In this document: piece by piece, positions 21,896 through 60,713 of the stretch
Position numbering within the stretch: the first letter of the stretch is position 1
How the letters are laid out: each line of letters starts with the position of its first letter
Source of the DNA: a bacterium
GTDB taxonomy: Bacteria; Patescibacteriota; Microgenomatia; Daviesbacterales; UBA10151
Assembly (NCBI GenBank): GCA_021786315.1
Contig: JAJYNN010000002.1
Coordinates: 334,997 to 398,996 of the forward strand
Length of the DNA stretch: 64,000 nucleotides
Direction: 5' to 3'
Position numbers and translations under genes: made by a program
The notes under the pieces: model-generated
The model's database searches: none
Told to the model about the DNA's origin: nothing
The model's input: the letters and a program-made list of their open reading frames with translations, nothing else

Positions 21896-22255
21896 ATGCT
21901 AGACAATGAAGAACTCATGCACAGAATTCACCAGGTCGGACAGAAAATTAGTGATGCAGCGACTTTAGAAGAGCTTTATTATTTTCAGGATGGCAATGCC
22001 CCGAAGGAGTGGATTAATTTAATGACTGCAGGTTTGTCCCAAACAGAGAAGGCTTTAATCAAGACTAATCTGGGCGTTATACGGAAAGCATTCCGGGTTG
22101 ATTTACCTTTAGGGTGGTTTCGGGAATTGGGCGTGGAGGGGTTGATGGATTTGCGGATTAACCGGCTGACACTGGCGGGGGCCAGGTTTTTTACCCGCAG
22201 TTTTCAAAAAGGAGAGTGGCCTGTTGAAGAAAAGGAACGACTAACTGACCGTTAA
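21896..22255 (+). CDS. hypothetical protein
   Basis: 119 aa; no motif. Confidence 0.35.
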   Translation: MLDNEELMHRIHQVGQKISDAATLEELYYFQDGNAPKEWINLMTAGLSQTEKALIKTNLGVIRKAFRVDLPLGWFRELGVEGLMDLRINRLTLAGARFFTRSFQKGEWPVEEKERLTDR

Positions 22256-22927
22256 GATCCTTTGTAAGTGAGCCAGATCTTTTTTGACTTCCACCGAGGC
22301 ATTGGGAAAATATTTTTGGGCCTCGAAGGCTGCCAGTTCTCCGTGGGTGTAATCAATTTCCCCTAGGATTAGTTTTGGTTTTAAACCTCTTTCGTTGATT
22401 TGGGTAAACAATTTTCTGTAAAGCTCAAAGCCGTCTTCACCGCCATCCAAAGCCACATGTGGTTCGAAGTCCTTAACGGAGGAATCCAGGTAATTGATCC
22501 TTTCTGTGGGGATGTAGGGAAGGTTGGTAACAATAATCAGATTTTCAGAATGTCGGAGTGTCGGAATATCAGATAGGAGGTTGCTGTGAATAAAAGTGAT
22601 TTTGTTTTCTACTCCGTGGAATTTGGCATTTTGCCTGGCCACATCCAAAGCTTTTTCGGAAACATCGGTGGCAATAACCTTAACATTGGGGGCATTTTTA
22701 GCCAGGGAAATGGCAATATTTCCTGTCCCAGTTCCAATATCCAATACAGTGACCTGATTTTGGGATTTGGCAAAATCCAAGACAGCGTCCACCAAAAGTT
22801 CCGTTTCCGGGCGGGGGATTAAGGCATCAGGAGTAACCTTGAATCTTAATTTATAGAACTCAACAAAACCTTTTATGTATTGATCAGGTTTAGAATTTTT
22901 ATCTGGCATATAATTTTCAATTAACAA
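22241..22927 (-). CDS. prmC: release-factor glutamine N5-methyltransferase (PrmC/HemK family), short form
   Basis: SAM motif 'VLDIGTGTGNIAISLA', 'TNLPYIP' (NPPY-like); immediately downstream of prfA. Confidence 0.75.
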   Translation of the reverse strand: MLIENYMPDKNSKPDQYIKGFVEFYKLRFKVTPDALIPRPETELLVDAVLDFAKSQNQVTVLDIGTGTGNIAISLAKNAPNVKVIATDVSEKALDVARQNAKFHGVENKITFIHSNLLSDIPTLRHSENLIIVTNLPYIPTERINYLDSSVKDFEPHVALDGGEDGFELYRKLFTQINERGLKPKLILGEIDYTHGELAAFEAQKYFPNASVEVKKDLAHLQRILTVS

Positions 22928-24341: not shown

Positions 24342-24504
24342 AACCCGAGCATTATACCAAGAATAGATTGATCCTACAACCCTGCCTTTGTGAAGATAAT
24401 AATTTTCAAATATTTAAGCATTGAGAATTTATTGTAAATTTAAAATTGTAAATTGGAAATTTTAGTGCCGGTGGGCCTTAAGACTGTTAGGTCGCAAGGC
24501 GCAT

Positions 24505-25443: not shown

Positions 25444-25472
25444 AATGTGAATTAAGAGTTATGAATTCAGAA

Positions 25473-25838
25473 TTAAGAATTATTCTTAGATTTTCTGATA
25501 ATCGTAACCAGTATTCTTATTATTTCATCATTCTCTTTGAGAAGTAAACCGAGCTCTTTTGAGTTAGTCAGTTTTGCCCTGGAAATTAAAGTTAACCAAT
25601 AATAAGTTTCCCTTGCCTCTTTTAATGCAACATTTAAAGAGTGGGTGAAGTCTTTTTTAGAGTGGGCACTTTGAGCTTCTTGAACATTAGCTCCGATTGA
25701 TGTTCCAGATCTGACAATTTGGGAAGCAATTGCATAACCAGCAGGTGTTTTAGGAAGGCTATTGACTAAGACGATAACTTCAATTGCAAACTCGATTGTT
25801 CTATCTGTGATATCAATTCTTAATTCATTATTCTGCAT
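25473..25838 (-). CDS. four-helix-bundle protein (23S rRNA IVS protein family, TIGR02436-like), free-standing
   Basis: 'IVRSGTSIGANVQEAQSAHSKKDFTHSLNVALKEARETYYWL'; 5' end overlaps hisS stop by 11 nt; AAGAATT repeats at both ends. Confidence 0.8.
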   Translation of the reverse strand: MQNNELRIDITDRTIEFAIEVIVLVNSLPKTPAGYAIASQIVRSGTSIGANVQEAQSAHSKKDFTHSLNVALKEARETYYWLTLISRAKLTNSKELGLLLKENDEIIRILVTIIRKSKNNS

Positions 25839-27030
25839 TCTGAATTCGATTTATCGCTTCATCAAGGGTGGCAGTTTGCTGGGTTTTGTTACTGAGGTCT
25901 TTTAAGGTAGCGGCGCCGTTTTCGGCTTCCTCCGGACCGATAATCACTACATAAGGTATCCCTTTTTGGTCGGCATACTTTAATTGTTTTTCCAGCCTGG
26001 TTTCAGGATCAAGCCAGATTTCCGAGTTTATCTTTTTTGAGCGAAGGGCTTCTAATACCTCAAGAGAATTATTGGCGAGCGCTGGGGAAAAGACGGTCAC
26101 TAAAACCTTGGCGGAAGATTTGAGGTTGGGAAGCAGTCCTTGGGATTCCAAAACTTCAACTGTCCGGTCAAACCCTAAGCCAAAACCTACGGCGGGGTAA
26201 TCAGTACCTGAGAAACTGCCGATCATCTTATCCCACCGACCGCCGCTGCAGATTGAGCCGGTGCTTCCCTCGGCAACAGTCTCAAAGATCATCCCTGTGT
26301 AATAATCCAAACCCCGGGCGAGGGTCGGCTCGTATTTCACTTTATTGGTATCTGCTCCCAGCTTTTCTAAAAGTTCAACAATTTGTTTGAGATTTTCGCT
26401 CATGGGGGTTTCCTGAAGTTTCTTTAAAGCTACTTTGGCATCCTCTTCGGCCATGCCTTTTTGGACCATCTCCGCCAAAACTTCGCTTTCACCGATCTTT
26501 TCCAGCTTATCAATGGCAGAAACGTATTTTTTGTCTAAACCCTCAAAATTTGCCCGGTCATTAACTTTAATGGTGACATTTAGTCCTAAGTTTTGGTAGA
26601 TGCCGAGAACCAAATTGAGAATTTCCGCATCAGCCAGGGGGGAGGAGGAACCGACAATATCGGCATCGCATTGCAAAAATTCCCTGTATCGGCCCCTTTG
26701 GGTATTTTCACCGCGGAAAACCGATTGGATTTGGTACCTTTTGAATGGTTTGGGAAGTTCGGGGTATTGAGCAATGACTCGGGCTAAAGGGACAGTTTGG
26801 TCATACCTTAAAGCTACCTCATCACCGCCTTTGGTTTGAAACTCATAAATCAGCTTTTCCTCCTCGCCGTATTTACCCTTTAAGACTTCGGCAAATTCCA
26901 AAGACGGGGTTTCCAGAGGCTCAAAGCCTAAAAGGCGGAAAGACTCCTTAATTTTGCCCAGCACATACTCCCGGGCGTTAGCCTGGTCTGGTAAGAGATC
27001 CCGGAAACCTTTTGGTGTAGCTGTTTTCAT
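25828..27030 (-). CDS. hisS: histidine--tRNA ligase
   Basis: class II aaRS HisRS pattern 'KGFRDLLP', 'RYDQTVPLAR', 'FRGENTQRGRYREFLQCD', C-terminal anticodon-binding domain. Confidence 0.9.
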   Translation of the reverse strand: MKTATPKGFRDLLPDQANAREYVLGKIKESFRLLGFEPLETPSLEFAEVLKGKYGEEEKLIYEFQTKGGDEVALRYDQTVPLARVIAQYPELPKPFKRYQIQSVFRGENTQRGRYREFLQCDADIVGSSSPLADAEILNLVLGIYQNLGLNVTIKVNDRANFEGLDKKYVSAIDKLEKIGESEVLAEMVQKGMAEEDAKVALKKLQETPMSENLKQIVELLEKLGADTNKVKYEPTLARGLDYYTGMIFETVAEGSTGSICSGGRWDKMIGSFSGTDYPAVGFGLGFDRTVEVLESQGLLPNLKSSAKVLVTVFSPALANNSLEVLEALRSKKINSEIWLDPETRLEKQLKYADQKGIPYVVIIGPEEAENGAATLKDLSNKTQQTATLDEAINRIQNAE

Positions 27031-29812: not shown

Positions 29813-29863
29813 TGCAGTTTTATATATTAAAGTTATATTGTTAGGCGGTCAAGTTTTATGTTA

Positions 29864-29945
29864 GTATCGGATAGTCGGAATATCGGCGTATCAGCATGTC
29901 GGAATATCTGACACACTGAAACTCTGATATACTGACACTCTGAAC
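29864..29945. repeat. degenerate period-8 tandem array (about 10 octamers; first half ..TCGGA, second half ..CTGA: imperfect palindrome)
   Basis: GTATCGGA TAGTCGGA ATATCGGC GTATCAGC ATGTCGGA ATATCTGA CACACTGA AACTCTGA TATACTGA CACTCTGA directly upstream of the MBL-fold gene. Confidence 0.55.
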
Positions 29946-29946
29946 T

Positions 29947-30588
29947 ATGGATATTTATTGGTACGGACAATCATGTTTCAAGATTAAAGGTAAAACTGCG
30001 TCGGTAGTTATTGATCCTTTTGACCCGGAAAAATTTGGGCTCAAATTACCTAAGGAATTGGAAGGACAGGTAGTTTTGGCTACCCATCAGCATCCTGACC
30101 ACAACAACGCGAATGCTGTTTCCGGTAATCCATTGATAATCGAAGGGCCGGGGGAATACGAGATCTCGGGTGTTAGTGTGGTGGGGGTACGGACCAACCA
30201 TGATGCCAGCGGGGGGACGGAGCGGGGGAAAAATACTCTTTATCACATTACCATGGACGGAATTGATATTGTTCATGTCGGCGATCTGGGGCATGTTTTG
30301 GCTGAGGAACAGACAAGTGAAATTGATAATGTGGATATTTTAATGATTCCTGTGGGAGGCAATTACACCATTGATTCTGAAACTGCCGCGAAAGTTGTAG
30401 CCCAATTGGAACCAAAAATTATTATCCCCATGCATTACAAGATTCCGGGTTTGACTGCCGAAGTTGAAGGTGTTGAGCCGTTCTTAAAAGAAATGGGAGC
30501 AGAAAATGTTCAACCACAACCCAAACTAACCATCACCAAGGATAAATTACCGGAAGAACCTGCCGTTATACTGCTCAGTAAAGTCTAG
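29947..30588 (+). CDS. MBL-fold metal-dependent hydrolase (UPF0173-like)
   Basis: 'LATHQHPDHNN' HxHxDH motif; 213 aa. Confidence 0.8.
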   Translation: MDIYWYGQSCFKIKGKTASVVIDPFDPEKFGLKLPKELEGQVVLATHQHPDHNNANAVSGNPLIIEGPGEYEISGVSVVGVRTNHDASGGTERGKNTLYHITMDGIDIVHVGDLGHVLAEEQTSEIDNVDILMIPVGGNYTIDSETAAKVVAQLEPKIIIPMHYKIPGLTAEVEGVEPFLKEMGAENVQPQPKLTITKDKLPEEPAVILLSKV

Positions 30589-43366: not shown

Positions 43367-44132
43367 AGTCATCTTTGAAGCCCCTTCCTTCCTGGTTTTA
43401 GATAAACCCCCGGGACTTGTTACCACTTCCTCTGAAACCCAGAAAGAGCCTTCCCTGGAGGATATTTTAAAGTCGGAATTTAGGATTAATGTTGATCGCG
43501 GAGGCATAGTTCACCGGTTAGACAAGGATACATCCGGGCTTTTGGTGGTGGCCAAAACCCAAGGTGCTTTGGAAAACCTGCAGGCCCAATTTAAAAACCG
43601 GGAAGTCAAAAAACAATATCTGGCTTTGGTTCACGGGGCCATTACTGAAGCGGGAAAAGTGGAGGTACCCATTGGCAGGAATCCCGGAGACCGGGAAAAA
43701 TTTGTGGCGGACCCAAATGTTCCTAATGCCCGGGAGGCGGTGACACTGTATGAACCGGTGCAAAATTTTCAATTTTCAATTTTCAATTTTCAATCAATCT
43801 TCAATGATTTAAATAAAATTCAAACAAGAAAGTTGGAAAGATCTCAGTATGGAATTTTTACGCTGCTCCGTTGCTATCCTCAAACTGGACGGACGCACCA
43901 AATTAGGGTACATTTAAAATACATCGGATTTCCCATCGTGGGGGACGGGAAATACGGTGGCCGGAAAACGGGCAGGTTAGACCACAGGTGGTGTCCCAGG
44001 CAGTTTCTACACGCTGCCAAGTTAGAGTTTAATGACCCCCAGACTGGAGAAAGATTGAGCTTTGAAAGTGAGCTGCCCGAGGATCTGCAGCAAGTTTTGA
44101 AGCTCCTGCAAGGTGACGCCTTGCACGAGTAA
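43359..44132 (+). CDS. RluA-family pseudouridine synthase carrying an in-frame repeat-derived insertion
   Basis: 'GIVHRLDKDTSGLLVVAKT', 'TGRTHQIRVHL'; insertion 'QNFQFSIFNFQSIFND' encoded by (CAATTTT)x4. Confidence 0.8.
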   Translation: MVKVIFEAPSFLVLDKPPGLVTTSSETQKEPSLEDILKSEFRINVDRGGIVHRLDKDTSGLLVVAKTQGALENLQAQFKNREVKKQYLALVHGAITEAGKVEVPIGRNPGDREKFVADPNVPNAREAVTLYEPVQNFQFSIFNFQSIFNDLNKIQTRKLERSQYGIFTLLRCYPQTGRTHQIRVHLKYIGFPIVGDGKYGGRKTGRLDHRWCPRQFLHAAKLEFNDPQTGERLSFESELPEDLQQVLKLLQGDALHE

Positions 44133-47361: not shown

Positions 47362-47437
47362 TCTAATTTTCAATTTACAATTTTCAATTTTCAAATTTTG
47401 AAAATTGGATCATTAAAAATTCATTGTAAATTGTTAC
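47362..47437. repeat. AT-rich intergenic element (AATTTTCAATT ... ATTGTAAATT family) with 11-bp A/T palindrome
   Basis: 'taattttcaatttacaattttcaattttcaaattttgaaaattgg...cattgtaaattg'. Confidence 0.5.
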
Positions 47438-49454: not shown

Positions 49455-49743
49455 TTTGCCTCCTTAGGGCTAAAATTTATTAGCTTTACTCAAGCAAAGC
49501 CTGGTCAAAAACAAGATTCTTAATTCTTAAATCCTAAATCTTAATTCTTGTGCCCAACCAGGCTCTGCCTGAGGTAAAAAAGTTAATCCACAAACTATTA
49601 AAGTGCAAGGGTTCCTTTAGACTTTTTAGGTCCTCGGGAATGGAATAATTATAGCAGGAAAGCCTTGAAATATCAAACTATGGGATACTTATATGCCTCC
49701 ATAGCTTGAAAAAGTAGCCTTCAAGAGATATCATCATAAAGTT

Positions 49744-50499
49744 ATGTCAGGGCACAGTAAGTGGTCGCAAATTAAAAGACAAAAAGGTATGGCTGACGTT
49801 AAGCGTGGGGCAACTTTTACTAAATTGGCCAATGCCATTACTATTGCTGCCCGTTTAGGTGGTTCCGGTGATCCCAATTCCAGCCCCAGGCTTCGTATGG
49901 CTGTTGAGGCTGCCCGTCAGGTAAACATGCCCAAAGATAACGTTCAGCGGGCCATAGATCGTGGTTTAGGAAAGCTTCCCGGACAAGTCTTGGAAGAGGT
50001 GGCTTATGAGGGATTTGGCCCAGGTAAAGTGGCCTATCTTATTGAGGGTGTCACTGACAACCGTTTACGGACTAACCAGGAAGTAAAGAACCTTTTTGAC
50101 CGGGCCGGCGGGGCTTTGGGTGGACCGGGCAGTACCGCCTATATGTTTGACCGGAAAGGGGAGATCAAAGTAAAAACTAGGGGTGGCAATAAGGATGATG
50201 AATTACTGGAGCTCATTGATCTTGGGGCAGACGATGTGGAGGACTTTGAAGAGGATAATATACAAAAGTATTTAGTATATACAGAAGGCTCAGAATTAAA
50301 TACTATGGGTACAAAAATTACTCAGGCTGGGTTTGAAATAGAGGAGCAGGATTTAACCTATAAACCGAACATGGTGACAGAAGTAAAAGATGCCAATGTA
50401 GCGCAAAAGGTAATGGAGTTTACGGAAAAATTAGAAGATTTGGATGATGTCCAAAAGGTATATGCAAATTTTGATATACCTGATGAGATGGTGGAATAA
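49744..50499 (+). CDS. yebC: YebC/PmpR-family DNA-binding regulator
   Basis: 'MSGHSKWSQIKRQKG..D.KRG..F.KL...I..AAR.GG.DP..N..L'. Confidence 0.9.
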   Translation: MSGHSKWSQIKRQKGMADVKRGATFTKLANAITIAARLGGSGDPNSSPRLRMAVEAARQVNMPKDNVQRAIDRGLGKLPGQVLEEVAYEGFGPGKVAYLIEGVTDNRLRTNQEVKNLFDRAGGALGGPGSTAYMFDRKGEIKVKTRGGNKDDELLELIDLGADDVEDFEEDNIQKYLVYTEGSELNTMGTKITQAGFEIEEQDLTYKPNMVTEVKDANVAQKVMEFTEKLEDLDDVQKVYANFDIPDEMVE

Positions 50500-50596
50500 T
50501 TTTCAATTTTTAATTCTTAATTTTCAATAAATTTTTAATGTTTAAATTTTAAAAATTAGAAATTCACTGTAAATTGGAAATTTTAAATTAGAAATT
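50500..50596. repeat. AT-rich intergenic element (AATTTTCAATT ... CACTGTAAATTGGAAATT family)
   Basis: shares sub-motifs with 22928-23025, 24372-24470, 34233-34331, 47362-47437. Confidence 0.5.
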
Positions 50597-51148
50597 ATGA
50601 TTATATTAGGCATTGATCCAGGAACAGCCACAACCGGATATGGACTTATCAAAGTACCTGATGATTTGTTAGGAAGGAAGTTTGACTATGATTTGGAACT
50701 TGTAGACTATGGTTTTATCTCCACGCCCAAAGATACCTTAATGGAAAAAAGATTGGTGATGTTACACCACGATTTGGAAAAGCTCTTGGACCAATTTAAG
50801 CCTGATTTGATTGTCATTGAGATGTTATTTTTTGGTTCCAATACCCGGACAGCGATTGCTGTCGGGCAGGCGAGGGGAGTGATGATGCTTTCTGCCGGGA
50901 TGAGAAATATCCCGATCCATGAATATACCGGGCCACAGGTAAAGTTGATGATTGCCGGATCAGGCAGGGCAGACAAGAAACAGGTCCACGAAGGTGTCCG
51001 GAAATTTTTGGGTAAAAGCGGTAAAAAGACCCGGGAGCTGGTCCAGCCGATGGTGGGAGGCGCCAGAAGGAATAAGAAGTTTTCTGATGATGCCACCGAT
51101 GCCCTTGCCATTGCTATCACTCATGTCTTAAAGTTAGCAGCAGCATAA
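50597..51148 (+). CDS. ruvC: crossover junction endodeoxyribonuclease RuvC
   Basis: 'IILGIDPGTATTGYGLI', 'IVIEMLFF', 'DATDALAIAITH'. Confidence 0.9.
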   Translation: MIILGIDPGTATTGYGLIKVPDDLLGRKFDYDLELVDYGFISTPKDTLMEKRLVMLHHDLEKLLDQFKPDLIVIEMLFFGSNTRTAIAVGQARGVMMLSAGMRNIPIHEYTGPQVKLMIAGSGRADKKQVHEGVRKFLGKSGKKTRELVQPMVGGARRNKKFSDDATDALAIAITHVLKLAAA

Positions 51149-51152
51149 AAGA

Positions 51153-51968
51153 ATGAAGGCTTTATCAGTCAAATTAAAAGTTTTTGGGGTTTCGGCAGAA
51201 TTAACCAAACGCCAAAAGATTATTGTTGCCTCGGGTATCCTTTCTCTTGGGTTATTGTCCACTCAATTGGTGCCGTTTTATCTGGCTTACCGGTTTATTG
51301 CGGGCTTGACGGTTGCCGCTTATCTGCTTTCCCTTTGGGCTTTGTGGGAGGGAATGGACAGGAGAAAGGCGGTAATTTTGATGATCTTGCCGACTTTGTT
51401 TACCCTGGCCGTTGCCAGCTATTATTTTTTGTTGCCGGTCCGCTGGTTAACCAGAATTCCGGTGGCGACACTTTTCGGGCTGACTTTTTATACATTGCTT
51501 TTGTCCCAAAATGTCTTTAATGTGGCTTCCACCAGGACCATTCCTTTGTACAGGGTGGCCTCAACCACAGTTTTTATTTTAACTTTAATTACTTCATTTC
51601 TATTGTTTAATGTCATGTTTTCTTTGAACCTGTTTTTCCTCTGGAACGGGGTAGCGGTCTTTATCTTAACTTTTCCGCTGATTTTACAGGTTCTTTGGAC
51701 AATTGATATGGAAGCTGTTTCGAGCGTAATTTTAATGTATAGTTTGAGCCTATCTTTGGTAGTGGCGGAGATTGGGGTGGCCCTGTCTTTTTGGCCGCTT
51801 TCTAAGTCTATGGCTTCCTTAATGCTATCCACGGCCATTTATACAACCTTGGGAATTGGATCTGATGCCTTAAAGGAACGGCTGAGTAGAGGAGTGGTCT
51901 GGGAATATTTAGGCTGGGGAGCGGTGATCTTCCTTGTAGCTTTACTCGGCACTTCCTGGACGGGGTAG
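51153..51968 (+). CDS. hypothetical polytopic membrane protein
   Basis: 7-8 TM helices. Confidence 0.45.
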   Translation: MKALSVKLKVFGVSAELTKRQKIIVASGILSLGLLSTQLVPFYLAYRFIAGLTVAAYLLSLWALWEGMDRRKAVILMILPTLFTLAVASYYFLLPVRWLTRIPVATLFGLTFYTLLLSQNVFNVASTRTIPLYRVASTTVFILTLITSFLLFNVMFSLNLFFLWNGVAVFILTFPLILQVLWTIDMEAVSSVILMYSLSLSLVVAEIGVALSFWPLSKSMASLMLSTAIYTTLGIGSDALKERLSRGVVWEYLGWGAVIFLVALLGTSWTG

Positions 51969-51974
51969 ACCCGA

Positions 51975-53299
51975 GTATCGGAATATCGGAGTATCAGAAT
52001 GTCAAAAGATTCCGACACTCCGAAACGCAGATATTCTGACACGCTGAATAAAAAGGGGAGAATAGTGTGTTGGAAAGCCCCAAATGAAGATGCAAAAAGT
52101 TGTTTGCCTTTATAGCATCTTCTCGCAGTACGCTTCGCGTACAATTGGAAGTATTCACCATAAAAAAGTGAATACTTCATACGATAGAGGAGGTAGAGAG
52201 GCGAAAACTATGGGACATTGTTTGATATAGTTGATATAGTTTGATATAGTTGCTAGCCTCGAATGTGGATAACTATAAGACATATCAGAGTATCAGAATA
52301 TCGGAACATCAGTGTGTCGGGAGACCAGAACATCAGATGATCAGAGTGTAGAGAACGAGAGAATACACTACTCTGGGGAGGCTACGACAAGATATATTTT
52401 TACCATTCTTACAAGACGACTGCTAACTTCTGTTTACACGCGTGAAAAATTAGGGATCTCCTTTGAAAGAGAGGAGAGCTCCCGTTACTTTATAAAAATA
52501 CGCACAAATTAGAACACGAAGCTGTGAGTTTGCCTCTACTTCAAGATAGATCCAGCCTCACACCCCGCTAAACAGAAGCCCTACTCAATTACTATGTCGC
52601 ACAATGTATCTTATGCGACGTCATGGATGCCTGTAACCAGGGGGAGACCCACCGGTCGCCAAAGCGACCGAATTTATAATTTTCAATTAACAATTTTAAA
52701 TTCTTTATTTTGTACCTATTTTAAATACTTTCCTATCGAAAAATTTTTCTTAATTCTTAACTCTTAATTCATAATTCTCGTTTTTTAGGTTTAGGGCTTT
52801 GGGACAAGCTAATCTGGGATGATGAAGTGTACATCCTCCCCCCGTTTCGACCGTTTTAGGGGCCTTCTAGAGCCTCGTGCGTAAATAGCCAGAGTGCCAG
52901 AGTTTCGGCGTATCAGAGTGTCGGAAAAGACATTAATAAACCCAGGTCTTATGCAAAGCGTTTAATCTTTTGGATAAAATTCGATATTCTTCTAATAAAT
53001 TGTTGGCTTCTACAGAAAAATTTTCATCAATCATTGATAAGGCTCTTAGATGAGTAATTATTTCGTCACTGGAACCAATAGCTATCAATAGATATCTTCT
53101 AAATTCCTTTTGTGAATTACGCTTAGCGAAGCCTTCAGCCTGTGGTAGCTTATTAGCTAATTCGTATAACTCCTTTAGTAACCTTAGTGATTCTTGGTAA
53201 ACCACTAAGTCTGTTACATCCTTAATTTCCATCAATTTTATCTTATTCACGAGTCCTTTTCCGGTTAACCGACATTCCGATACTCCGATATTCTGATAC
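51975..53299. mobile_element. cassette bounded by inverted 29-bp octamer-array ends (27/29 identity), containing a repeat-rich non-coding kb and a four-helix-bundle gene
   Basis: left 51975-52003 GTATCGGAATATCGGAGTATCAGAATGTC; right 53271-53299 is its reverse complement with 2 mismatches. Confidence 0.35.
52933..53232 (-). CDS. four-helix-bundle protein (23S rRNA IVS protein family), free-standing
   Basis: 'MEIKDVTDLVVYQESLRLLKELYELANKLPQAEGFAKRNSQKEFRRYLLIAIGSSDEIITHL'; the ORF track's 5' extension to 53556 is considered spurious. Confidence 0.7.
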   Translation of the reverse strand: MEIKDVTDLVVYQESLRLLKELYELANKLPQAEGFAKRNSQKEFRRYLLIAIGSSDEIITHLRALSMIDENFSVEANNLLEEYRILSKRLNALHKTWVY

Positions 53300-53368
53300 G
53301 TCGCACAATATTTATCCTCTTTCGAGGCTATTCGACTACCTTTTAATCTATGATAGTATGAAATAGAG

Positions 53369-54844
53369 ATGGCTTTGTTTGGAAATAAATTTAAGGTAAA
53401 GGATCTAGTTTCCCTCACTCTCCTACTCTTGTTAATGGCTGCTATTCCTTTGGGGGTGAAATTAATTGAACAACAACAGATATTAAAAGGAAGGGCATCC
53501 TCGAATCTGGATAGTTGTGTCAATAAATTAATCTTTGGGTTTAATGGCCCGGTCAATAATAAAATTAGAGAGCTTTTTACCAGCCCTTCACTTAATTTTA
53601 TTCCAGTTGCTTGGAAGGATATCCAGCCAAATCAAAGTTCTGCTTACGATTTTTCCAAAGTTGATAAATTAATAAATGACACCATTGCCGAAGGCCGGAC
53701 TCCAACTATTAAGTTTTGTGATGGTGATTGTTTCCCTGATTGGGCCAGGCAAATGGACACCGCTCCCGAGAGAACTTATTGCTGTAGTACTGATTATGTG
53801 TGCCGAGTATTAAAGGAAGATACCGGTACTGCAAACGCCTTTTCCGATGTGGTTAAAGCGATGGTGAACCGCTATAAAGATAAGGTGCATTATTGGGATT
53901 ATGGTATTGAGCCAAATTGCCGGGGTTACAACCCACAAAAATATACCGGTTTGCTGAAAAACTTTGCCAACTCTGTTAGGTCACAGGATTCAGGAGCTGT
54001 TATTGTCGGAGGACATTTGGCGGGAGCCAACATCGACTATCTGCGGGCGATGTATGCCGCCGGGGCTAAACCGTATTTTGACCGGCTCTCCGTTGACCCT
54101 TATGGTGAGCCGTTGGACTTTAATGCCTTGGAAGTTGCCCATAATTATATGGTTAGTCAAGGAGATGGCAATAAAAAGATCTGGTTGGGTGAATGGGGTT
54201 TGGCGACTAACAATGATGAGACAAAACAAGCAGATCAAGTCCAGATAGGCCTAAATTATTTGGCAAATCAATCTTGGATTGAAGCTGCTTTTTATCACAA
54301 TTTTGAATGTGAGCTTTGGACTAGCACTTGTTCCCCCGGAACTCCCGGTTACTTAGGCTTTGGTTTAACTAAAAGTGATGGCAGCGTGAAGCTTGCCTAC
54401 AATACCTTTAAGCATGCGGTGAGTGCTTGTATGGCTGCAACCCCTACGGCTCAGCCTTCCCCTATTGCCAGCCCGACAACTTCCGCTTCTCCGACCGGAA
54501 CCATATCCCCTGTGCCGACGGTTTCCTGGGCTCAAAGTACCCCAACCCCAATTTCTTCATCCCAGGGTAATAATTCCGGTAGAGCTACCTCCACCTCTAC
54601 TCCATCTTATAAGAGGAACTTGTCCAAAGCCTTCCCTACCCCGACTCCCCTGCCTACCTTGTCTCAGGAAACCCTCAAGTTTGACTATAACGGTGATAAT
54701 AAAGTTAATAGTTTTGATGTTGGTTTGTTTATCCAAGGATGGCTGAAGAATGATGCTTCCGGAATTGTTAAATTTGACGCCAACGGCGATGGCATTATTA
54801 ACTCACTGGATTATTCCCTTTTGGTCAAGAGTGTTAATCCTTAA
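53369..54844 (+). CDS. N-terminally anchored GH5-like (clan GH-A TIM-barrel) glycoside hydrolase with Pro/Thr linker and C-terminal dockerin module
   Basis: 'WDYGIEPN' (NEP-like acid/base), 'IWLGEWGLA' (nucleophile context); dockerin Ca-loops 'DYNGDNKVNSFD' and 'DANGDGIINSLD'. Confidence 0.6.
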   Translation: MALFGNKFKVKDLVSLTLLLLLMAAIPLGVKLIEQQQILKGRASSNLDSCVNKLIFGFNGPVNNKIRELFTSPSLNFIPVAWKDIQPNQSSAYDFSKVDKLINDTIAEGRTPTIKFCDGDCFPDWARQMDTAPERTYCCSTDYVCRVLKEDTGTANAFSDVVKAMVNRYKDKVHYWDYGIEPNCRGYNPQKYTGLLKNFANSVRSQDSGAVIVGGHLAGANIDYLRAMYAAGAKPYFDRLSVDPYGEPLDFNALEVAHNYMVSQGDGNKKIWLGEWGLATNNDETKQADQVQIGLNYLANQSWIEAAFYHNFECELWTSTCSPGTPGYLGFGLTKSDGSVKLAYNTFKHAVSACMAATPTAQPSPIASPTTSASPTGTISPVPTVSWAQSTPTPISSSQGNNSGRATSTSTPSYKRNLSKAFPTPTPLPTLSQETLKFDYNGDNKVNSFDVGLFIQGWLKNDASGIVKFDANGDGIINSLDYSLLVKSVNP

Positions 54845-54889
54845 GGTTTCACTTGACAACCTTTATATATATGGTCTACGCTAAATTCA

Positions 54890-55177
54890 GTGGATCCTGA
54901 CATGAACCAATTTGATTCGATTAAAGAGCAAACCAGTAAAAGGAAAAATGTTTTAACTGCCTTAATGGTTGTAGCGGCAATTCTAATAATTCCCTTCGGA
55001 GTAAAGCTTATCCAGCAACAACAGGAATTAAAGTCAAAAGCGGCTAATGATTCCATTCAGTTTGCCGGTGATAGTGTCAAGTGTGATACGGCCGGTAAAT
55101 GTACCACCACTTCCAAGACAGTCCAGGTCCAGTTGCGTTCGCCGCTTGGACCGCCGGCCAAACTACCGCAGCATTAA
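54890..55177 (+). CDS. small N-terminally anchored protein sharing the 'P[LF]GVKLI[EQ]QQQ' motif with the preceding gene
   Basis: TM 'LTALMVVAAILIIPFGVKLIQQQQELKSK'; same frame as the next gene, separated by a single TAA. Confidence 0.4.
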   Translation: MDPDMNQFDSIKEQTSKRKNVLTALMVVAAILIIPFGVKLIQQQQELKSKAANDSIQFAGDSVKCDTAGKCTTTSKTVQVQLRSPLGPPAKLPQH

Positions 55178-55180
55178 AAT

Positions 55181-57148
55181 ATGGAATATCTTAAAAAAGC
55201 CTACATTTTAATAATTCCACTTTCCCTCTCCTTATTTTTATTTGTAGCCTTTTTCGTTAGCCCGGTAAAAAGTTATGCTTGTACTCCTGGTGAAAGTGAG
55301 GTTTGTCCTAGCATAAAGCAATGTACTAGTGGCCCTCATCAGGGAGAAGCTTGTGCATCCGGGCACAAATATTGTACAAATTTAAACCCTGCAACTGGTG
55401 AATATGATAACGATGTAACACCTTATTGGACCGATTGTGTGCAGGAGGTAGATAATTGTGGTACACAGTGTACTTCGGCTACAGTTTCTCCGACAGGTTC
55501 GACTGGTAATTGTAGCGGTAATGCCAATACTAAATGTGGATCAATCCCTTGGAGCACTGTAAGCTCAGAGCTGAAAAGTGCTGGTTATGGCGGGCCGTTT
55601 GATTGTAGTCAAACAGAGCTGGATAGTTACAATGGGGTTAAGGTTTGTGAAGGAACAAGTCCTACTGGAAGCCAAAATGGTTCGTGCCCTTTGAGCGGAT
55701 ATAGTGTTGATAACGCTTTGGCTACCTGTATTGCGAGTAAGGACAGCAGCCTGCCGGGAAGTATTAAGAAGTTAGGTAGTGACAACGGTCAGGATTGGAG
55801 TGGCTGCTCAAACCAGCAATTAATTGCCAAGTGGTGTACGGATATTAATTCCAGCGGTTGTAACGATTACAAAAACGGTGCTTGCGCTTCCGGGCCGACT
55901 GCCACACCCACTGTGGCGGTTGCAACTACTGAGTACAGAATTTCTGAAACCCGGTTTGGCCGAAGCGACAGTGGAACCGGTTCCCCTCAATGGGTTGCCT
56001 ATAATAGTGATGACGGTTCTGAACCGATAACCGTTCCTTATACTTTTACCAATGGTAATCCCGGTGATACTTTAACCCTTTGGGTGCAATTTAAGGACAA
56101 TAAGGGCGATGTAACTGAGCCTAAACCTTACTCTATTAAATATATCGGCCCTGACCCAAAGATTACCAGCGCTAGTTGTACCTTTGACCCATCCGGCCAG
56201 GGAACCTTGGTAACTTTGACCGGATCTAATTTCAATACCCACGACGAACAAGGCACGGGCGGTGTTAAGATTAACGGCCAGCAGGCGGATATTATCTCTT
56301 GGGGCGAGGATACTCCGGGTATTACTCCTACAGGTGCTGTTTCTCCCACTATGTCGGTTACACCTACAACTTCCGTATCCCCAACTGCCAGGCCGGGTGG
56401 GACTGTCTGTGCCCAGGTTATAACTTCGGCAAAAAATGCTACCGGGACTGAGTGTAAAGATTTTCCAACCCCTTGTGATGTTCCGGCGGGATGGGTGGTT
56501 GTCAACAGCTGTTCGGGCGGCTCAACTGTTTTGGGTGAAAGCGTTACCAGATCAAAGGTTGTGGCTAAAATCAAAGACCAGCTTCCCGGAAATGCCAGGG
56601 TTCCGCTTTTGCTGACCATGGATGACGGCCGGGCTGTCACGGCTACCTGTAGCATAAACACCACCACTGTCTCATTCCAGGCAAAAATTGGCTGCCGCAC
56701 CTCCGGTGACTATGCCGAAAACGGTGTCAACATTAATATCATGGAGGACATCCGTGGCGCTAAACCTTTGGTCAGGCAAAAGGTCAATATTGACGCTGCA
56801 GGAAATCTTCCCTCTGATTTTGCTCCGGTGCTGGAAGTTGGTAAGAAATACAAAATGTTAATTAAAGCCCCCAATACTCCAACCCGCAGAATTGAGTTTA
56901 CCCCCTCACTAGGATCGAATATTTTGTCTGACGTCAGTATGGATGTTGGTGATATTGCCCCGGCTGGACATGCTGACGGTAAGATCAACGCTTTGGATAA
57001 GTCTGAGCTTGCCAGAGAGTTTTCCGCAGGCTGTAGCACCACAACTGCCAAAGCGGGAGACTTTAACCAGGATGGTTGTGTCAATGCCTTGGACTGGTCT
57101 TGTATGAGGGAAAATATTAATAAGGAGGACGAGGACACAATCCAGTAA
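55181..57148 (+). CDS. secreted Cys-rich protein with Pro/Thr linkers and C-terminal dockerin-like module
   Basis: signal peptide; >30 Cys in N-terminal 230 aa; 'GHADGKINALD' and 'DFNQDGCVNALD' Ca-binding loops. Confidence 0.55.
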   Translation: MEYLKKAYILIIPLSLSLFLFVAFFVSPVKSYACTPGESEVCPSIKQCTSGPHQGEACASGHKYCTNLNPATGEYDNDVTPYWTDCVQEVDNCGTQCTSATVSPTGSTGNCSGNANTKCGSIPWSTVSSELKSAGYGGPFDCSQTELDSYNGVKVCEGTSPTGSQNGSCPLSGYSVDNALATCIASKDSSLPGSIKKLGSDNGQDWSGCSNQQLIAKWCTDINSSGCNDYKNGACASGPTATPTVAVATTEYRISETRFGRSDSGTGSPQWVAYNSDDGSEPITVPYTFTNGNPGDTLTLWVQFKDNKGDVTEPKPYSIKYIGPDPKITSASCTFDPSGQGTLVTLTGSNFNTHDEQGTGGVKINGQQADIISWGEDTPGITPTGAVSPTMSVTPTTSVSPTARPGGTVCAQVITSAKNATGTECKDFPTPCDVPAGWVVVNSCSGGSTVLGESVTRSKVVAKIKDQLPGNARVPLLLTMDDGRAVTATCSINTTTVSFQAKIGCRTSGDYAENGVNINIMEDIRGAKPLVRQKVNIDAAGNLPSDFAPVLEVGKKYKMLIKAPNTPTRRIEFTPSLGSNILSDVSMDVGDIAPAGHADGKINALDKSELAREFSAGCSTTTAKAGDFNQDGCVNALDWSCMRENINKEDEDTIQ

Positions 57149-57194
57149 ACCGGGAGTTGTAGACAAGCAATCTTGGTTATGTTTAGATAAATAT

Positions 57195-57803
57195 ATGGAG
57201 CAAACACAGGGAATAATCAGTAAACTAGCTACCAGAAGAAACATTGTTACCGTGATTGTGGTTATTTTGGTGGCTGAGATAGCTTGGGGCGTTTGGACTT
57301 TAACCAAACCCACCAAACAAGGGTCCACCGAGCGGGGTTTGGTGTCTGAAGCCAAAGCCTCTTCTGCCTCCGTCTTTTTACAGACCCCTAAGTCCAGCTA
57401 CACTATTGGGGAAAAAGTGGTTGTAACCATCAGCATCTCCTCTACCCGCCACACCGATGGAACGGATTTAATCATTAAATATGATCCGAAGGTATTGGCG
57501 ATGGATCCTGCTGTAACTAAAGCCCCGGTGGCTGTCGGCAAGATTTATACTGAGTACCCAATAAATACCGTGGATGAAAAAGCCGGGAAAATTACTGTTT
57601 CCGGAATTACTTCTGCTCCGTCCGGAGTAGTCCCGCAAGGGGTTTTTGGAACTGTCACATTCGTGGCTAAAGCTTCCGGAAAAACAAAAATCGCTTTGGA
57701 CTTTACTCCCGGAAGCACCTCAGATTCCAATGTTGTGGAATCAAAAACAGCCCTGGATGTCCTTGATGGGGTGAAAGACGTCGACCTGACAATCGTGCCA
57801 TGA
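57195..57803 (+). CDS. N-terminally membrane-anchored single-cohesin protein
   Basis: TM 'IVTVIVVILVAEIAWGVWTL'; cohesin-like 'GEKVVVTISISS...DLIIKYDPKVL', 'GKITVSGITSAPSGVVPQGVFGTVTFVAKASGKTKIALDF'. Confidence 0.55.
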   Translation: MEQTQGIISKLATRRNIVTVIVVILVAEIAWGVWTLTKPTKQGSTERGLVSEAKASSASVFLQTPKSSYTIGEKVVVTISISSTRHTDGTDLIIKYDPKVLAMDPAVTKAPVAVGKIYTEYPINTVDEKAGKITVSGITSAPSGVVPQGVFGTVTFVAKASGKTKIALDFTPGSTSDSNVVESKTALDVLDGVKDVDLTIVP

Positions 57804-58540
57804 AAAGATTATTGACCCGCTGCCTTTTGTCTGTAGCCGCTTTGGCGACCATATCCTTTTCTGCCGCTCCTGCATTTGCTACCGGAGCGACACTTTCGTT
57901 GTCCCCCAGTACCGGAACCTTTAATAAAGGCTGCGGCTTTACACTTTCAATTAATTTAGACACCGGTGGCGCCCAAACAGACGGCACCGACGCTATTTTA
58001 TTCTATGACCCTACCCGTTTTACCGCTAATGCCATTCACAGCGGAACAATTTATGCAGATTACCCGGGCAATAATATCGATGCCACAAATGGAAAGATTA
58101 CTGTTTCCGGATTGTCTTCTGTAAGCAGCGCTTTTTCAGGGGCAGGGACGTTGGCGACAATAGACTTTGCGGTAGCAGATGATGCTCCGGCCGGCACCAG
58201 CCAGATTAAGTTTGATTTTGACCCCGCTGATAAAACCAAAACTACCGATTCCAATGTTGTGGAAAGAGGGACGGTTACAGATATCTTAAACCAAGTGGTA
58301 GACGGTAACTACACTATTGGTACCGGGGCCTGCGGCACCACCAATTCAGGGACAACAACGACAACTACGAATAATACAGCCACCGGTTCCGGTGTTTGGA
58401 CTAAGACACCTGTTGGCGGGCCTCTCCCGACCAAAACTCCGGTTCTTCCCCAATCCGGGAACATTTCTCCGACGGTTTTAGTGGCCGTCGTTGGCAGCGC
58501 TTTGACTATTTTAGGCATCTTAGGTCTCGCGATACTTTAA
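57800..58540 (+). CDS. secreted single-cohesin protein with Thr-rich stalk and C-terminal LPQSG plus hydrophobic anchor
   Basis: signal peptide; cohesin-like 'GCGFTLSINLD...DAILFYDPTRF', 'GKITVSGLSSVSSAFSGAGTLATIDFAV'; 'LPQSGN' then TM, no basic tail. Confidence 0.55.
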   Translation: MKRLLTRCLLSVAALATISFSAAPAFATGATLSLSPSTGTFNKGCGFTLSINLDTGGAQTDGTDAILFYDPTRFTANAIHSGTIYADYPGNNIDATNGKITVSGLSSVSSAFSGAGTLATIDFAVADDAPAGTSQIKFDFDPADKTKTTDSNVVERGTVTDILNQVVDGNYTIGTGACGTTNSGTTTTTTNNTATGSGVWTKTPVGGPLPTKTPVLPQSGNISPTVLVAVVGSALTILGILGLAIL

Positions 58541-58541
58541 T

Positions 58542-59459
58542 ATGGCTCTCTCTGCTCTTGTCACCGATTTCCTGGAATACCTGGAGGTAGAACGTCATGC
58601 CTCCCAAAAAACGATCGAAAATTACGACCACTACCTTAAAAGGTTTGTCGAGTTTGCCGGGGATATTGATCCGAGGGCAATCAATTTGGCCTTGATCCGT
58701 AAGTTTAGGCTGCACTTAAACCGCTGGATTGATCCTAAAACCAAGAAGCCCTTAAAAAGGGTGACCCAAAATTATTTCATGATTGCTCTCCGGGCATTCT
58801 TAAAATATCTCGCCCGCCAGGACGTAGATACTTTATCTCCGGAAAAGGTGGAGCTGGGAGAAACCGATGCCGCTCCGATCAAAGTTTTGGATGAGGAAGC
58901 CTTAAAGAGACTATTAGAGGCGCCGGATGTTTTGGACAAGTCCGGGCTTCGGGATAAAGCCCTTTTGGAAACGCTGTTTTCTACCGGCCTGCGGGTTTCC
59001 GAGTTGGCTTCTTTAAATAAGGACACTGTAAACCTCGACAGAAAAGAATTTTCAGTGGTCGGGAAAGGTTCCAAGGAACGGATTGTCTTTTTGTCTGACG
59101 ATGCAGCCAAATGGCTTGACCAGTACCTTAAAAGCCGCAAGGACCCCTATAAACCGCTGTTTATCCGCTATCAGGGAGCAGATGACCCGGCGGATAATGG
59201 GGAAAATATGCGGCTTACTTCCCGCTCGATCCAAAGGATTGTGGAAAAATATGTTAAAGGTGTGGGACTTCCGGTAAAAGCCACTCCCCATACTTTGCGC
59301 CATAGCTTTGCTACGGATTTGTTAATCAATGGAGCCGATATCCGTTCGGTGCAGGAAATGCTGGGCCACTCCAACATAGCCACCACCCAAATTTATACCC
59401 ATATCACGAATAAGCACCTCAAGGATGTCCACAAAAGTTTTCATTCTGGAAATAAATAA
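58542..59459 (+). CDS. tyrosine recombinase, XerC/XerD family
   Basis: 'HTLRHSFATDLLINGADIRSVQEMLGHSNIATTQIYTH' (R..HxxR...Y catalytic residues). Confidence 0.85.
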   Translation: MALSALVTDFLEYLEVERHASQKTIENYDHYLKRFVEFAGDIDPRAINLALIRKFRLHLNRWIDPKTKKPLKRVTQNYFMIALRAFLKYLARQDVDTLSPEKVELGETDAAPIKVLDEEALKRLLEAPDVLDKSGLRDKALLETLFSTGLRVSELASLNKDTVNLDRKEFSVVGKGSKERIVFLSDDAAKWLDQYLKSRKDPYKPLFIRYQGADDPADNGENMRLTSRSIQRIVEKYVKGVGLPVKATPHTLRHSFATDLLINGADIRSVQEMLGHSNIATTQIYTHITNKHLKDVHKSFHSGNK

Positions 59460-59489
59460 GGGATATGGTGTATGTAGTAAGGGGTATGG

Positions 59490-59864
59490 ATGGAAAATCA
59501 GAAAATAAAGTCTTTTACTGAGCTTAACGCCTGGCAAGAGGGCCATCAATTAGTTTTAGCAATATATCGTTTAAGTAAATCATTTCCTCAAGAAGAGAAA
59601 TTTGGATTAACAGATCAAATAAGGAGGGCATCTGTTTCTATAACTTCTAACTTAGCCGAGGGTTTTTCGAGATTAGGCAGAAAAGAGAAGTTACAGTTTT
59701 ATCGCATGTCTTTGGGTTCCTTAACTGAATTACAAAATCAACTGATTATTGCAAGGGACTTAGAATACGTGACTTTTGAAGAATTCAGGAAAATAGAAGA
59801 CTTATCTGTGGTAGTTAGTAAATTATTAAATGGTTTACTTAAATCTCTTTCCCGTAATACATAA
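59490..59864 (+). CDS. four-helix-bundle protein (23S rRNA IVS protein family), free-standing
   Basis: 'LNAWQEGHQLVLAIYRLSKSFPQEEKFGLTDQIRRASVSITSNLAEGFSR'. Confidence 0.8.
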   Translation: MENQKIKSFTELNAWQEGHQLVLAIYRLSKSFPQEEKFGLTDQIRRASVSITSNLAEGFSRLGRKEKLQFYRMSLGSLTELQNQLIIARDLEYVTFEEFRKIEDLSVVVSKLLNGLLKSLSRNT

Positions 59865-59867
59865 TAC

Positions 59868-60713
59868 TTACCCCTTACCCCATAAACTTTTCAGTAATTC
59901 CACATTATTCTTATCCGGTCCTTGTCCTGCCTCCCCTGGGATTTCCAGGATAAAGGGTACATTTTGTAGTTTGGGATGGTTTATTAAAGCCCGGAAACCT
60001 TCCAGTCCGATATAACCTTGGCCGATATTCTCGTGCCTGTCTTTTTTGCTTCCCAGCTCTGTTTTGGAATCATTGGCATGGATGGCCACCAATTTTTCTA
60101 CCCCAATTTCCCGGTTTATCACCTCTACCCACTCCTCTACTTTCTCTTTTGTTCTTAAATCATATCCTGAGGCAAAAGCATGCTGGGTATCCAAACAAAC
60201 CTTTAGCCTGGGATTGTTGACTGCCTTGATAATTTGCCCAAGTTCCTCAAGGGTATCCCCTATTAAATTCCCTGCTCCGGCCGAATTTTCCAGGATCAAA
60301 TTAGCCTCACCGGTTTGGCTCAAAATAGCTTTGATGGCTTGGACAACCTGGCCTATTGCCTGCTCCTGGGTAGTGCCTTTATATGACCCAATATGGAAAA
60401 TAGTTCCCCCTATTCCCAACTTTTCCGCCGTCTTTTGGGAATAAATGAGCCAATTGACGGATTTTTGTAGGTGCTCCTGGTTAGGTGTAGCCAAGCTGAC
60501 AAGGTAAACTGCGTGGATAAAGTTAGGGCCGATCCCTGATTCTTGGGCTTTAGCCCGGTATTTTTGAATTTCCTCTTCCGGATGGCTTATTTGAACCCAT
60601 TGCTGAGGCGGGGTGATAAATATTTGGGTGCATTCTGCTCCCAGCTCTTCTGCCCGGTTAAAACTTAGATCCAGTGATCCGGCAGCTGAAACATGAGCAC
60701 CCACCTTTGGCAT
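59868..60713 (-). CDS. nfo: endonuclease IV (AP endonuclease family 2)
   Basis: 'GAHVSAAGSLDLSFNRAEELG', His/Glu metal-site pattern; 281 aa. Confidence 0.9.
   Translation of the reverse strand: MPKVGAHVSAAGSLDLSFNRAEELGAECTQIFITPPQQWVQISHPEEEIQKYRAKAQESGIGPNFIHAVYLVSLATPNQEHLQKSVNWLIYSQKTAEKLGIGGTIFHIGSYKGTTQEQAIGQVVQAIKAILSQTGEANLILENSAGAGNLIGDTLEELGQIIKAVNNPRLKVCLDTQHAFASGYDLRTKEKVEEWVEVINREIGVEKLVAIHANDSKTELGSKKDRHENIGQGYIGLEGFRALINHPKLQNVPFILEIPGEAGQGPDKNNVELLKSLWGKG

Follow-up and report, generated by a model that had tools for sequence, protein, structure and literature searches.

Three juxtaposed units, rather than one mobile cassette, probably make up a repeat-rich spacer with a four-helix-bundle gene in a relative of Candidatus Daviesbacteria

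What is the 1.3 kb of repeat-rich DNA found between positions 51975 and 53299 of the window, the 64 kb stretch analysed here, which comes from one genome of a Candidate Phyla Radiation (CPR) bacterium close to Candidatus Daviesbacteria? A first-pass annotation had taken it for one cassette with inverted 29-bp ends, carrying a four-helix-bundle (4HB) gene and non-coding DNA. The locus is a spacer of 1.4 kb between the gene of a DUF5656 membrane protein (51153-51968), which sits downstream of ruvC, and a GH5/dockerin gene (53369-54844), and the 4HB gene has RuvC, DUF5656, GH5, dockerin and cohesin genes as neighbours. All the sequence features on which the proposal was built are present: the inverted match 51975-52003 / 53271-53299 (29 nt, 27/29, 93% complementary); the octamer arrays, at 51967-52046, 52282-52345, 52886-52925 and 53260-53299; the triple tandem GTT(T)GATATA, at 52220-52252; a long interval without credible open reading frames (ORFs), there being none of at least 70 aa across 52050-52930; and the 4HB gene, whose product matches Pfam 23S_rRNA_IVP (E 1.4e-10). 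The observation is real; the cassette is not, and the 27/29 pairing is probably not special as a pair of element ends. We consider it likely that the stretch is made of three juxtaposed units: an ORF-less hairpin, a conserved non-coding element (CNE) with a dif-like site, and a decaying 4HB module of the intervening-sequence (IVS) type that sits in an insertion hotspot.

The idea of a single unit fails on synteny. With the DUF5656 protein of the window we recovered 38 genome loci, either labelled Daviesbacteria or belonging to metagenome-assembled genomes of the same kind; the closest relative is the genome with loci L003-L007, whose ruvC and DUF5656 genes are 74% identical to those of the window at the DNA level. 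In its loci L003-L005, RuvC, DUF5656, about 880 bp of non-coding DNA, 4HB and GH5 come in the order of the window, and identity to L003 is 76% over the non-coding DNA as compared with 74% over the genes on either side. An nhmmer profile run against the loci of the relatives finds homologues of the central ~690 bp, the CNE, in 38 of 38 (best hit per locus E 1e-15 to 1e-97), and almost all of these have an ORF-free gap of 630-1455 bp after the DUF5656 gene. Most of the supposed non-coding cargo is therefore ancestral: it is syntenic after DUF5656 with or without the 4HB gene and the arrays, and in relatives that lack the ends. Empty sites were likewise not found: in each of the 38 relatives the inner ~690 bp is in place, whether arrays accompany it or not. 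The only variable unit among them is the ~415-bp module at 52886-53299.

Nor do the two ends seem to belong together. They fall in two different local structures and a closer local partner exists for each: the left one, 51975-52003, is part of the forward arm of a hairpin (51967-52046) in which it meets its own reverse-oriented array 5 nt later, and the right one is part of the 5' arm of the 4HB module. The repeat unit of the arrays is RTRTCRGA, and between any two arrays in compatible orientation 21-25 of 29 bases are common; because of this background, and because the orthologous pair in L003 matches at only 21/29, the 27/29 match is unlikely to be the signature of element ends. What speaks for a single MITE/IS-like (miniature inverted-repeat transposable element/insertion sequence) or hairpin-ended mobile cassette, with 29-bp termini and with the 4HB gene and non-coding DNA as cargo, is the 27/29 match itself, a level that random 5-unit arrays drawn from the observed pool of units reach at P = 0.005 per pair. 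Against it, and in addition to the 15 forward x reverse pairs to which this P applies, the ancestral interior and the poorly matching ends of L003, there is no target-site duplication (GACCCGA outside 51975, GTCGCAC outside 53299), no second copy of the cassette or its interior in the 64 kb, and no transposase found in the window. Current evidence contradicts this explanation, to which we give almost no credence. The other outcome foreseen in the first-pass annotation, that the 29-mer is just one of hundreds of randomly scattered array copies, does not hold either: a position-weight scan of RTRTCRGA units over the 64 kb, with shuffles as control, detects 8 arrays at 4 places, 5 of the 8 in this spacer, as against 0-1 per shuffle. 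A longer inverted repeat of 68 nt, 52254-52320 / 53269-53330, whose 23-nt core TAGCCTCGAATGTGGATAACTAT is matched 20/23 (z 8.1), was considered as an alternative pair of ends and rejected, being window-specific: neither L003 nor any of 22 further relatives has it. It gives the impression of an inverted duplication of recent date beside two arrays.

If they are not termini, what are the octamers? They are the arms of an element of the rRNA-IVS type, a conclusion that rests on the inverted TCRGA/TCYGA flanks seen at 52-54 4HB genes, in and outside rRNA. In the Daviesbacteria loci every 4HB gene stands between inverted short-tandem-repeat arrays, built of differing units, and the suggestion that the other 4HB genes of the window also lie in short-repeat DNA was well founded, every 4HB gene examined being bracketed by inverted tandem-repeat arms. 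We surveyed 54 distinct metagenomic 4HB genes by flank alignment and 52 of them by motif counts. The upstream flank aligned to the reverse complement of the downstream flank gives a mean score of 33.5, compared with 16.1 for direct alignment and ~14.5 for shuffles, with z > 3 for 96% of the 54 genes and a median z of 8.3. The arms have repeat periods of 7-10 nt, the modal spacing being 8 nt in 30 genes, 7 in 10, 9 in 7 and 10 in 4, and they are polar: the 110-nt upstream flank holds on average 3.9 TCRGA versus 0.6 TCYGA per gene, the downstream flank 3.1 TCYGA versus 0.4 TCRGA (n=52), with modes of 5 TCRGA units upstream and 4 TCYGA units downstream. Among 20 4HB loci checked with Rfam over 2.5 kb around the gene, 4 copies lie in 23S rRNA, 1 in 16S, 1 beside 16S and 14 without rRNA within 2.5 kb; the window copy is not inside rRNA, the sole Rfam hit in the 64 kb being a tRNA. 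Thus, copies outside rRNA share polar repeat arms with the rRNA-borne ones. The 23S IVS of Coxiella is similar, with tandem GACAGAT heptamers of variable copy number upstream of the S23p ORF, the first of these repeats being where RNase III cleaves, and with an ORF decaying by deletion (PMC4990558). Our literature search, incomplete in its coverage, brought up no paper that describes TCRGA arms for 4HB genes located outside rRNA. Protein relatedness was also tried as a predictor of the repeat period and discarded, the association being weak (nearest neighbour with the same period in 31/51, against 41% expected).

The unit at 52886-53299 is, in short, an IVS-type stem-loop element outside rRNA, as indicated by the family-wide polar arms, the likeness to Coxiella and the pairing of the arms around the ORF. 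Indeed, in the predicted fold of the sense transcript (52876-53312, minus strand) 53260-53299 pairs with 52886-52925 around the ORF, at -109.1 kcal/mol and z -3.67. Its gene is damaged: the Pfam match is above the cut-off but covers profile positions 47-105 only, and the protein lacks 22 residues that correspond to helix 2 and include the Q..RA..SI..NI.EG stretch, while the 4HB proteins of the relatives are all 119-127 aa long and intact orthologues have 119 aa. The nearest solved structure is 2GSC, XCC0516. A minus-strand 4HB gene between octamer arrays occupies this place in the window, L003 and L013 (among the 38 loci, in L013 only). The modules of L003 and L013 are intact and encode proteins 89% and 55% identical to the window copy, respectively; in L024 the module is internally deleted, the arrays being kept around a remnant in which ~5 initial codons run straight into the C-terminal ..LSKR(I/L)NSLH.. 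codons; elsewhere it is absent, with only TCYGA arrays left beside a half-site (see below) in L010, L012 and L043, and unrelated short sequence there in other genomes. A single site therefore displays intact, truncated, gutted and ORF-less states, a pattern that, with the protein identities just given, fits an old module inherited vertically and decaying repeatedly.

The ORF-less state is also met as free-standing hairpins. The one at 51967-52046, of ~80 nt, folds as RNA at -28.5 kcal/mol (z -3.9) and is also present in L003 with a different number of units. A second one, at 29862-29947, lies between divergent genes, with its 3' arm overlapping the ATG at 29947, and the two are homologous (29875-29944 versus 51978-52048, 82% identity over 71 nt). 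Such hairpins are probably the end state of module decay or else non-autonomous copies of modules.

The part of the spacer that all relatives share has its own organisation. Its first block contains a DnaA-box-like nonamer, TGTGGATAA (52265-52273), that is single copy and fixed in orientation in 38/39 loci and perfect in 27, the total count being 45 against 12.4 +/- 3.5 in shuffles. Other well-conserved blocks are GTTTACACGCGTGAAAAAT and CCAGGGGGAGACC, the latter followed by a GC-rich hairpin and an A+T-rich tract, and the element closes with ..GCCGTTTTAGGGGCCTTCTAGGGCCTCGTGC... The hairpin reads CCGGAC-AAA-GTCCGG in L003, where both halves of the stem have changed and still pair. The segment from the nonamer to block 2 varies in sequence at a steady length: the window has a forward-only array here (52282-52345), which alone does not fold (z 0.45), and array-free relatives have unrelated filler, with a spacing of ~160-175 nt in most loci that hold both motifs. 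A replication origin, for which the single conserved nonamer and the A+T-rich tract might argue, was rejected, since the genes on the left and the GC skew point towards the element and not away from it.

The CNE also carries a 28-bp palindrome that resembles dif. In 24 genomes it occurs once per locus, with 24 full sites in 493 kb, all in the CNE and all in the same orientation. Its 11-bp arms are conserved and its 6-bp centre varies (TGTATC, TGATGG, TATAGA, TGTAGC and others); the sole variable arm position shows mismatches without compensatory base-pair changes, as expected of a protein-binding site and not of an RNA stem. By our own count, 18 of its 28 bases are shared with E. coli dif as printed in PMC3325230, the matches being concentrated in CGCA.AATGTAT.TTATG. 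A xer ORF (58542-59459; Phage_integrase match 1.2e-44, plus a SAM-like domain) lies nearby, and in the relatives xer orthologues follow the CNE at 0.05-6 kb. GC skew falls from +0.12 to +0.03 across the CNE in 25 of 26 loci, and the slope of the cumulative skew of the window changes at 52 kb. Judged from these sequence features, the palindrome probably marks the dif/terminus locus, and it is most likely here that the nearby Xer recombinase binds and that crossover takes place. Further downstream comes a half-site, a second copy of the left arm, with GTCGNACAAT occurring exactly 2 times in 64 kb. It is found in 25 loci 117-537 nt past the CNE end, usually 45-130 nt ahead of the next gene. Its use as a general promoter was considered and rejected, given these only two occurrences and the canonical TTGACA promoters that relatives have downstream of the half-site. 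Full palindromes are missing from the CNE of 13 genomes, of which 11 keep a half-site within the CNE.

In nine of those 13 (L014, L019, L023, L025, L028, L031, L032, L035 and L041) a xer paralogue, 31% identical to the window xer, stands directly after the CNE, ~150-250 nt past it; in front of this gene, a TTGACA promoter shares its sequence in part with a dif-like palindrome of another kind (ATAA-N6-TTAT), for example ATGAGTATAA-TCAACC-TTATACTCA.

Table 1. Coordinates of the features discussed, in positions of the 64 kb window
Feature	Position	Strand	Description
First 4HB module	25449..25847	-	inverted heptamer arms 25449-25483 + 25815-25847, 81-86% complementary; Pfam 23S_rRNA_IVP E 2.9e-23
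Second ORF-less octamer hairpin	29862..29947	.	RNA fold -37.8 kcal/mol, z -5.7
ORF-less octamer hairpin	51967..52046	.	forward arm of RTRTCRGA units 51967-52006, reverse arm 52011-52046
CNE	52204..52895	+	~690 bp, always directly 3' of the DUF5656 gene; ancestral in Ca. Daviesbacteria
CNE block 1	52220..52279	+	tandem GTT(T)GATATA x3 reads as TTGATA-17-TATAGT (promoter-like), plus DnaA-box-like nonamer
Forward-only octamer array, ~8 units	52282..52345	+	inside the CNE segment of variable sequence and kept length
dif-like palindrome ATGTCGCACAA-TGTATC-TTATGCGACGT	52593..52620	+	11-6-11, 28 bp; inside the CNE
GC-rich hairpin GGTCGC-CAAA-GCGACC	52653..52670	+	terminator-like; followed by 120 nt of A+T-rich DNA
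4HB module, 3' arm, ~5 octamer units	52886..52925	+	TCYGA on the sense strand of the gene
4HB gene (Pfam 23S_rRNA_IVP / S23p, PF05635)	52933..53232	-	99 aa, or 105 aa from a GTG at 53250
4HB module, 5' arm, ~5 octamer units	53260..53299	-	TCRGA on the sense strand of the gene; contains the proposed right end
Half-site TACGTCGCACAATAT	53297..53311	+	repeats the left arm of the palindrome
Third 4HB module	59460..59883	+	inverted CTTACCC-type arms at the very ends; empty site in L003

Taken together, these data lead us to the composite explanation given at the outset. Its first unit is the hairpin of octamer repeats at 51967-52046; its second, the CNE (52204-52895), which stands between the DUF5656 gene and the xer region in all sampled Ca. 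Daviesbacteria; and its third, the 4HB module, which sits between the 3' end of the CNE and the half-site, an interval that appears to be a hotspot accumulating small selfish genes. If the module is transcribed, its arms would pair into an imperfect stem of ~40 bp with the ORF looped out, comparable to the rRNA intervening-sequence stems cut by RNase III, and by this analogy it may be processed in the same way. The module is old at this site and decaying, helix 2 being gone from the window copy. We also see a wider reading, tentative and rather doubtful as a whole: the polar arms, with about five TCRGA units before the gene and about five TCYGA units after it, might be a cis-signature of the entire 4HB (S23p/Avd-like) family, in and outside rRNA, and more than an RNase III stem, perhaps the register along which the RNA or DNA of the module is bound by its own 4HB protein, as a pentameric ring; the arrangement arm-ORF-arm would then be self-recognising, the ORF-less hairpins would be non-autonomous copies, the shared arms would supply the homology for gain and loss of ORFs, and, as a separate matter, the ~690-bp element would serve small selfish genes of Daviesbacteria as a landing pad, associated with dif and so far undescribed. 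The 4HB/23S_rRNA_IVP domain has been termed uncharacterised (PMC11270868) and since the 1990s it has been asked whether rRNA intervening sequences are mobile (PMC4990558); the arms and the decay series provide a concrete and testable cis-element for this family. The locus also brings to notice a conserved dif-like element, beside a hotspot of insertions, in a lineage of the CPR, whose chromosome biology has hardly been studied.

Several points weigh against the composite explanation. The forward-only array at 52282-52345 has no partner and is not accounted for by the stem model. The palindrome may serve another purpose, given the 13 genomes without it, and placing the terminus here is only suggestive, as the skew to the right of the CNE falls to around zero and does not become negative. 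L024 is the sole intermediate between module and ORF-less hairpin, and the hairpins may have had an independent origin. Finally, the arm survey took in 4HB genes 30-55% identical to the window gene, and both copy number and the uniqueness of the palindrome were judged within 64 kb of the source genome.

Could the same facts be explained otherwise? The arrays might be generic intergenic hairpins, terminators or REP-like (repetitive extragenic palindrome) sequences, unlinked to 4HB genes and next to one by coincidence. Hairpins 29862-29947 and 51967-52046 and the array at 22534-22573, which is in a coding gene, do lie away from any 4HB gene, the spacers of this genome are rich in other short tandem repeats, and many convergent heptamer arrays have been described in Xanthomonas with no link to S23p (PMC4692102). 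Yet five of the eight arrays are concentrated in one spacer; the arrays track those relatives that have, or had, a 4HB gene here and are sub-threshold in almost all others; polar TCRGA/TCYGA arms are strongly enriched at 52 independent 4HB genes, rRNA copies included; and the hairpins have no U-tracts, one of them overlapping a start codon. We regard a chance association as highly improbable. A reading in which the 4HB module resembles an IMEX (integrative mobile element exploiting Xer), integrated by Xer between palindrome and half-site, seems to us very unlikely as well. The module does lie between a full site (52593-52620) and, in direct orientation, a half-site with a degenerate right arm (53297-53311), with a xer gene close by and in a hotspot that gathers various small elements. 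However, 52640-52895, where the CNE is conserved at its 3' end, falls between the two sites as well, no sites of this sort adjoin either of the other 4HB modules of the window, and the half-site is present in genomes without such an insert, from which it follows that the pair of sites predates the module.

The same conservation that argues against a cassette could be read as that of a large non-coding RNA gene, with the arrays and the palindrome as parts of the RNA. The CNE is conserved as strongly as the adjoining genes, its first block is promoter-like, its GC-rich hairpin differs from that of L003 in both halves of the stem and yet pairs in each, and one of its segments keeps its length while varying in sequence. 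Against this, no relevant Rfam family was matched, even at E <= 10, in a search at gathering and permissive thresholds that covered the window and 11 relatives; RNAalifold returned 33 pairs in 701 columns for the CNE, and almost nothing on block 4; hand-drawn helices covaried no more than shuffles; and the variable arm position of the palindrome shows no covariation. With so little consensus structure and with covariation at shuffle level, we do not adopt a structured RNA as the principal explanation of the CNE and hold it to be unlikely.

The three units share some features with known systems and show important differences from them: (i) the 23S IVSs with an S23p ORF, such as those of Coxiella burnetii, Leptospira and Salmonella (PMC4990558), belong to the same Pfam family, have the ORF in the loop of a long stem made by inverted flanks, have arms of short tandem repeats whose copy number varies (the GACAGAT heptamers of Coxiella), lose their ORF by deletion and are sporadically distributed, whereas the window copy lies in a protein-gene spacer beside a dif-like site and not in rRNA, has octamers as arms, is accompanied by ORF-less hairpin copies in the same genome, and is a candidate, by analogy, for excision by RNase III. 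(ii) Chromosomal dif sites served by a single Xer (XerH/difH) and E. coli dif (PMC3325230) also have 28 bp, two near-palindromic 11-bp arms and a 6-bp centre; the inner bases CGCA.AATGTAT.TTATG equal those of E. coli dif, each locus has a single copy, xer is close and the GC skew changes. In contrast to these systems, the window site is embedded in a ~690-bp CNE, an extra half-site lies downstream, and in one third of the relatives the full palindrome is missing and a different one stands beside the 31%-identical xer paralogue. (iii) MITEs and other small elements with terminal inverted repeats are likewise short, with inverted arms and no transposase, and the likeness extends to ORF-less copies (the two homologous hairpins of the window) and to the filled/empty polymorphism of the module at 59460-59883. 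Unlike them, the window modules have no convincing target-site duplication (at most the weak ATAAA at 59460/59883), their arms are degenerate tandem repeats and not unique termini, their 4HB copies are only 25-33% identical, with no recent burst, and the proposed 1.3-kb stretch is not the unit. (iv) The Avd protein of diversity-generating retroelements (Pfam bAvd) has a fold of the same four-helix-bundle family, and the third 4HB protein of the window matches bAvd at E 1.1e-6, below the Pfam cut-off; but none of the three 4HB genes of the window has a reverse transcriptase or a template/variable repeat pair near it. A diversity-generating retroelement was rejected on these grounds and for want of a long direct repeat.

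Do 4HB genes then travel in repeat DNA, as the first-pass annotation had supposed? In part: units with inverted arms come and go, though not as this cassette. The third module, at 59460-59883, has the xer stop codon on one side and the endonuclease IV gene, with its 3' end, on the other; in L003, compared by eye, the 3' ends of these two genes overlap by 15 nt (TCAGGTAACAAGTGA) with no 4HB gene, and this filled/empty pair supports the idea that 4HB modules are gained or lost as units. Both joints of the module (59460/59883) carry ATAAA, but we do not take so short and A+T-rich a match of 5 bp for a duplication. In L030 the same joint holds an unrelated small minus-strand ORF (9010-9290), and thus, with a 4HB module in the window, nothing in L003 and another ORF in L030, the xer/endonuclease IV joint is variable too. 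The three 4HB proteins of the window are mutually 25-33% identical, hence no sign of recent movement within this genome. As for the route, modules may move by recombination between shared arms, through a transposase acting in trans, or through RNA, as the kinship with Avd might suggest.

Other small sequences occupy the interval between the CNE and the half-site in further genomes. Small GIY-YIG nuclease genes are present in L012 (7344-7880, Pfam E 2.2e-16) and L026 (7586-7978), flanked by inverted repeats of the GTCATCCTGAGCGAAG.. type; palindromes of this type also lie in the hotspot of L011, L014, L034, L037, L040, L043 and L044, with solo copies in other genomes, and other palindromes occupy it in further ones. 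Between the half-site and xer, the window carries a GH5/dockerin/cohesin island (53369-58540) that looks inserted at this locus, because in L030, L016 and L038 xer follows within ~0.05-1.7 kb of the CNE.

Short tandem repeats are also found in other parts of the window. A 5-unit octamer array at 22534-22573 lies in frame within a PrmC/HemK-like methyltransferase ORF (22241..22927, minus strand), where it encodes ..LSDIPTLRHSENLI.. just ahead of the NLPY motif. A+T-rich heptamer arrays (AATTTTC, AAGAATT, TTCTTAA) are common in the spacers, for instance at 14627-14661, 24431-24461, 29305-29382, 43764-43794, 47365-47398, 49516-49549, 50498-50597 and 52747-52778, and the first 4HB module has arms of the same kind (25449-25483 / 25815-25847).

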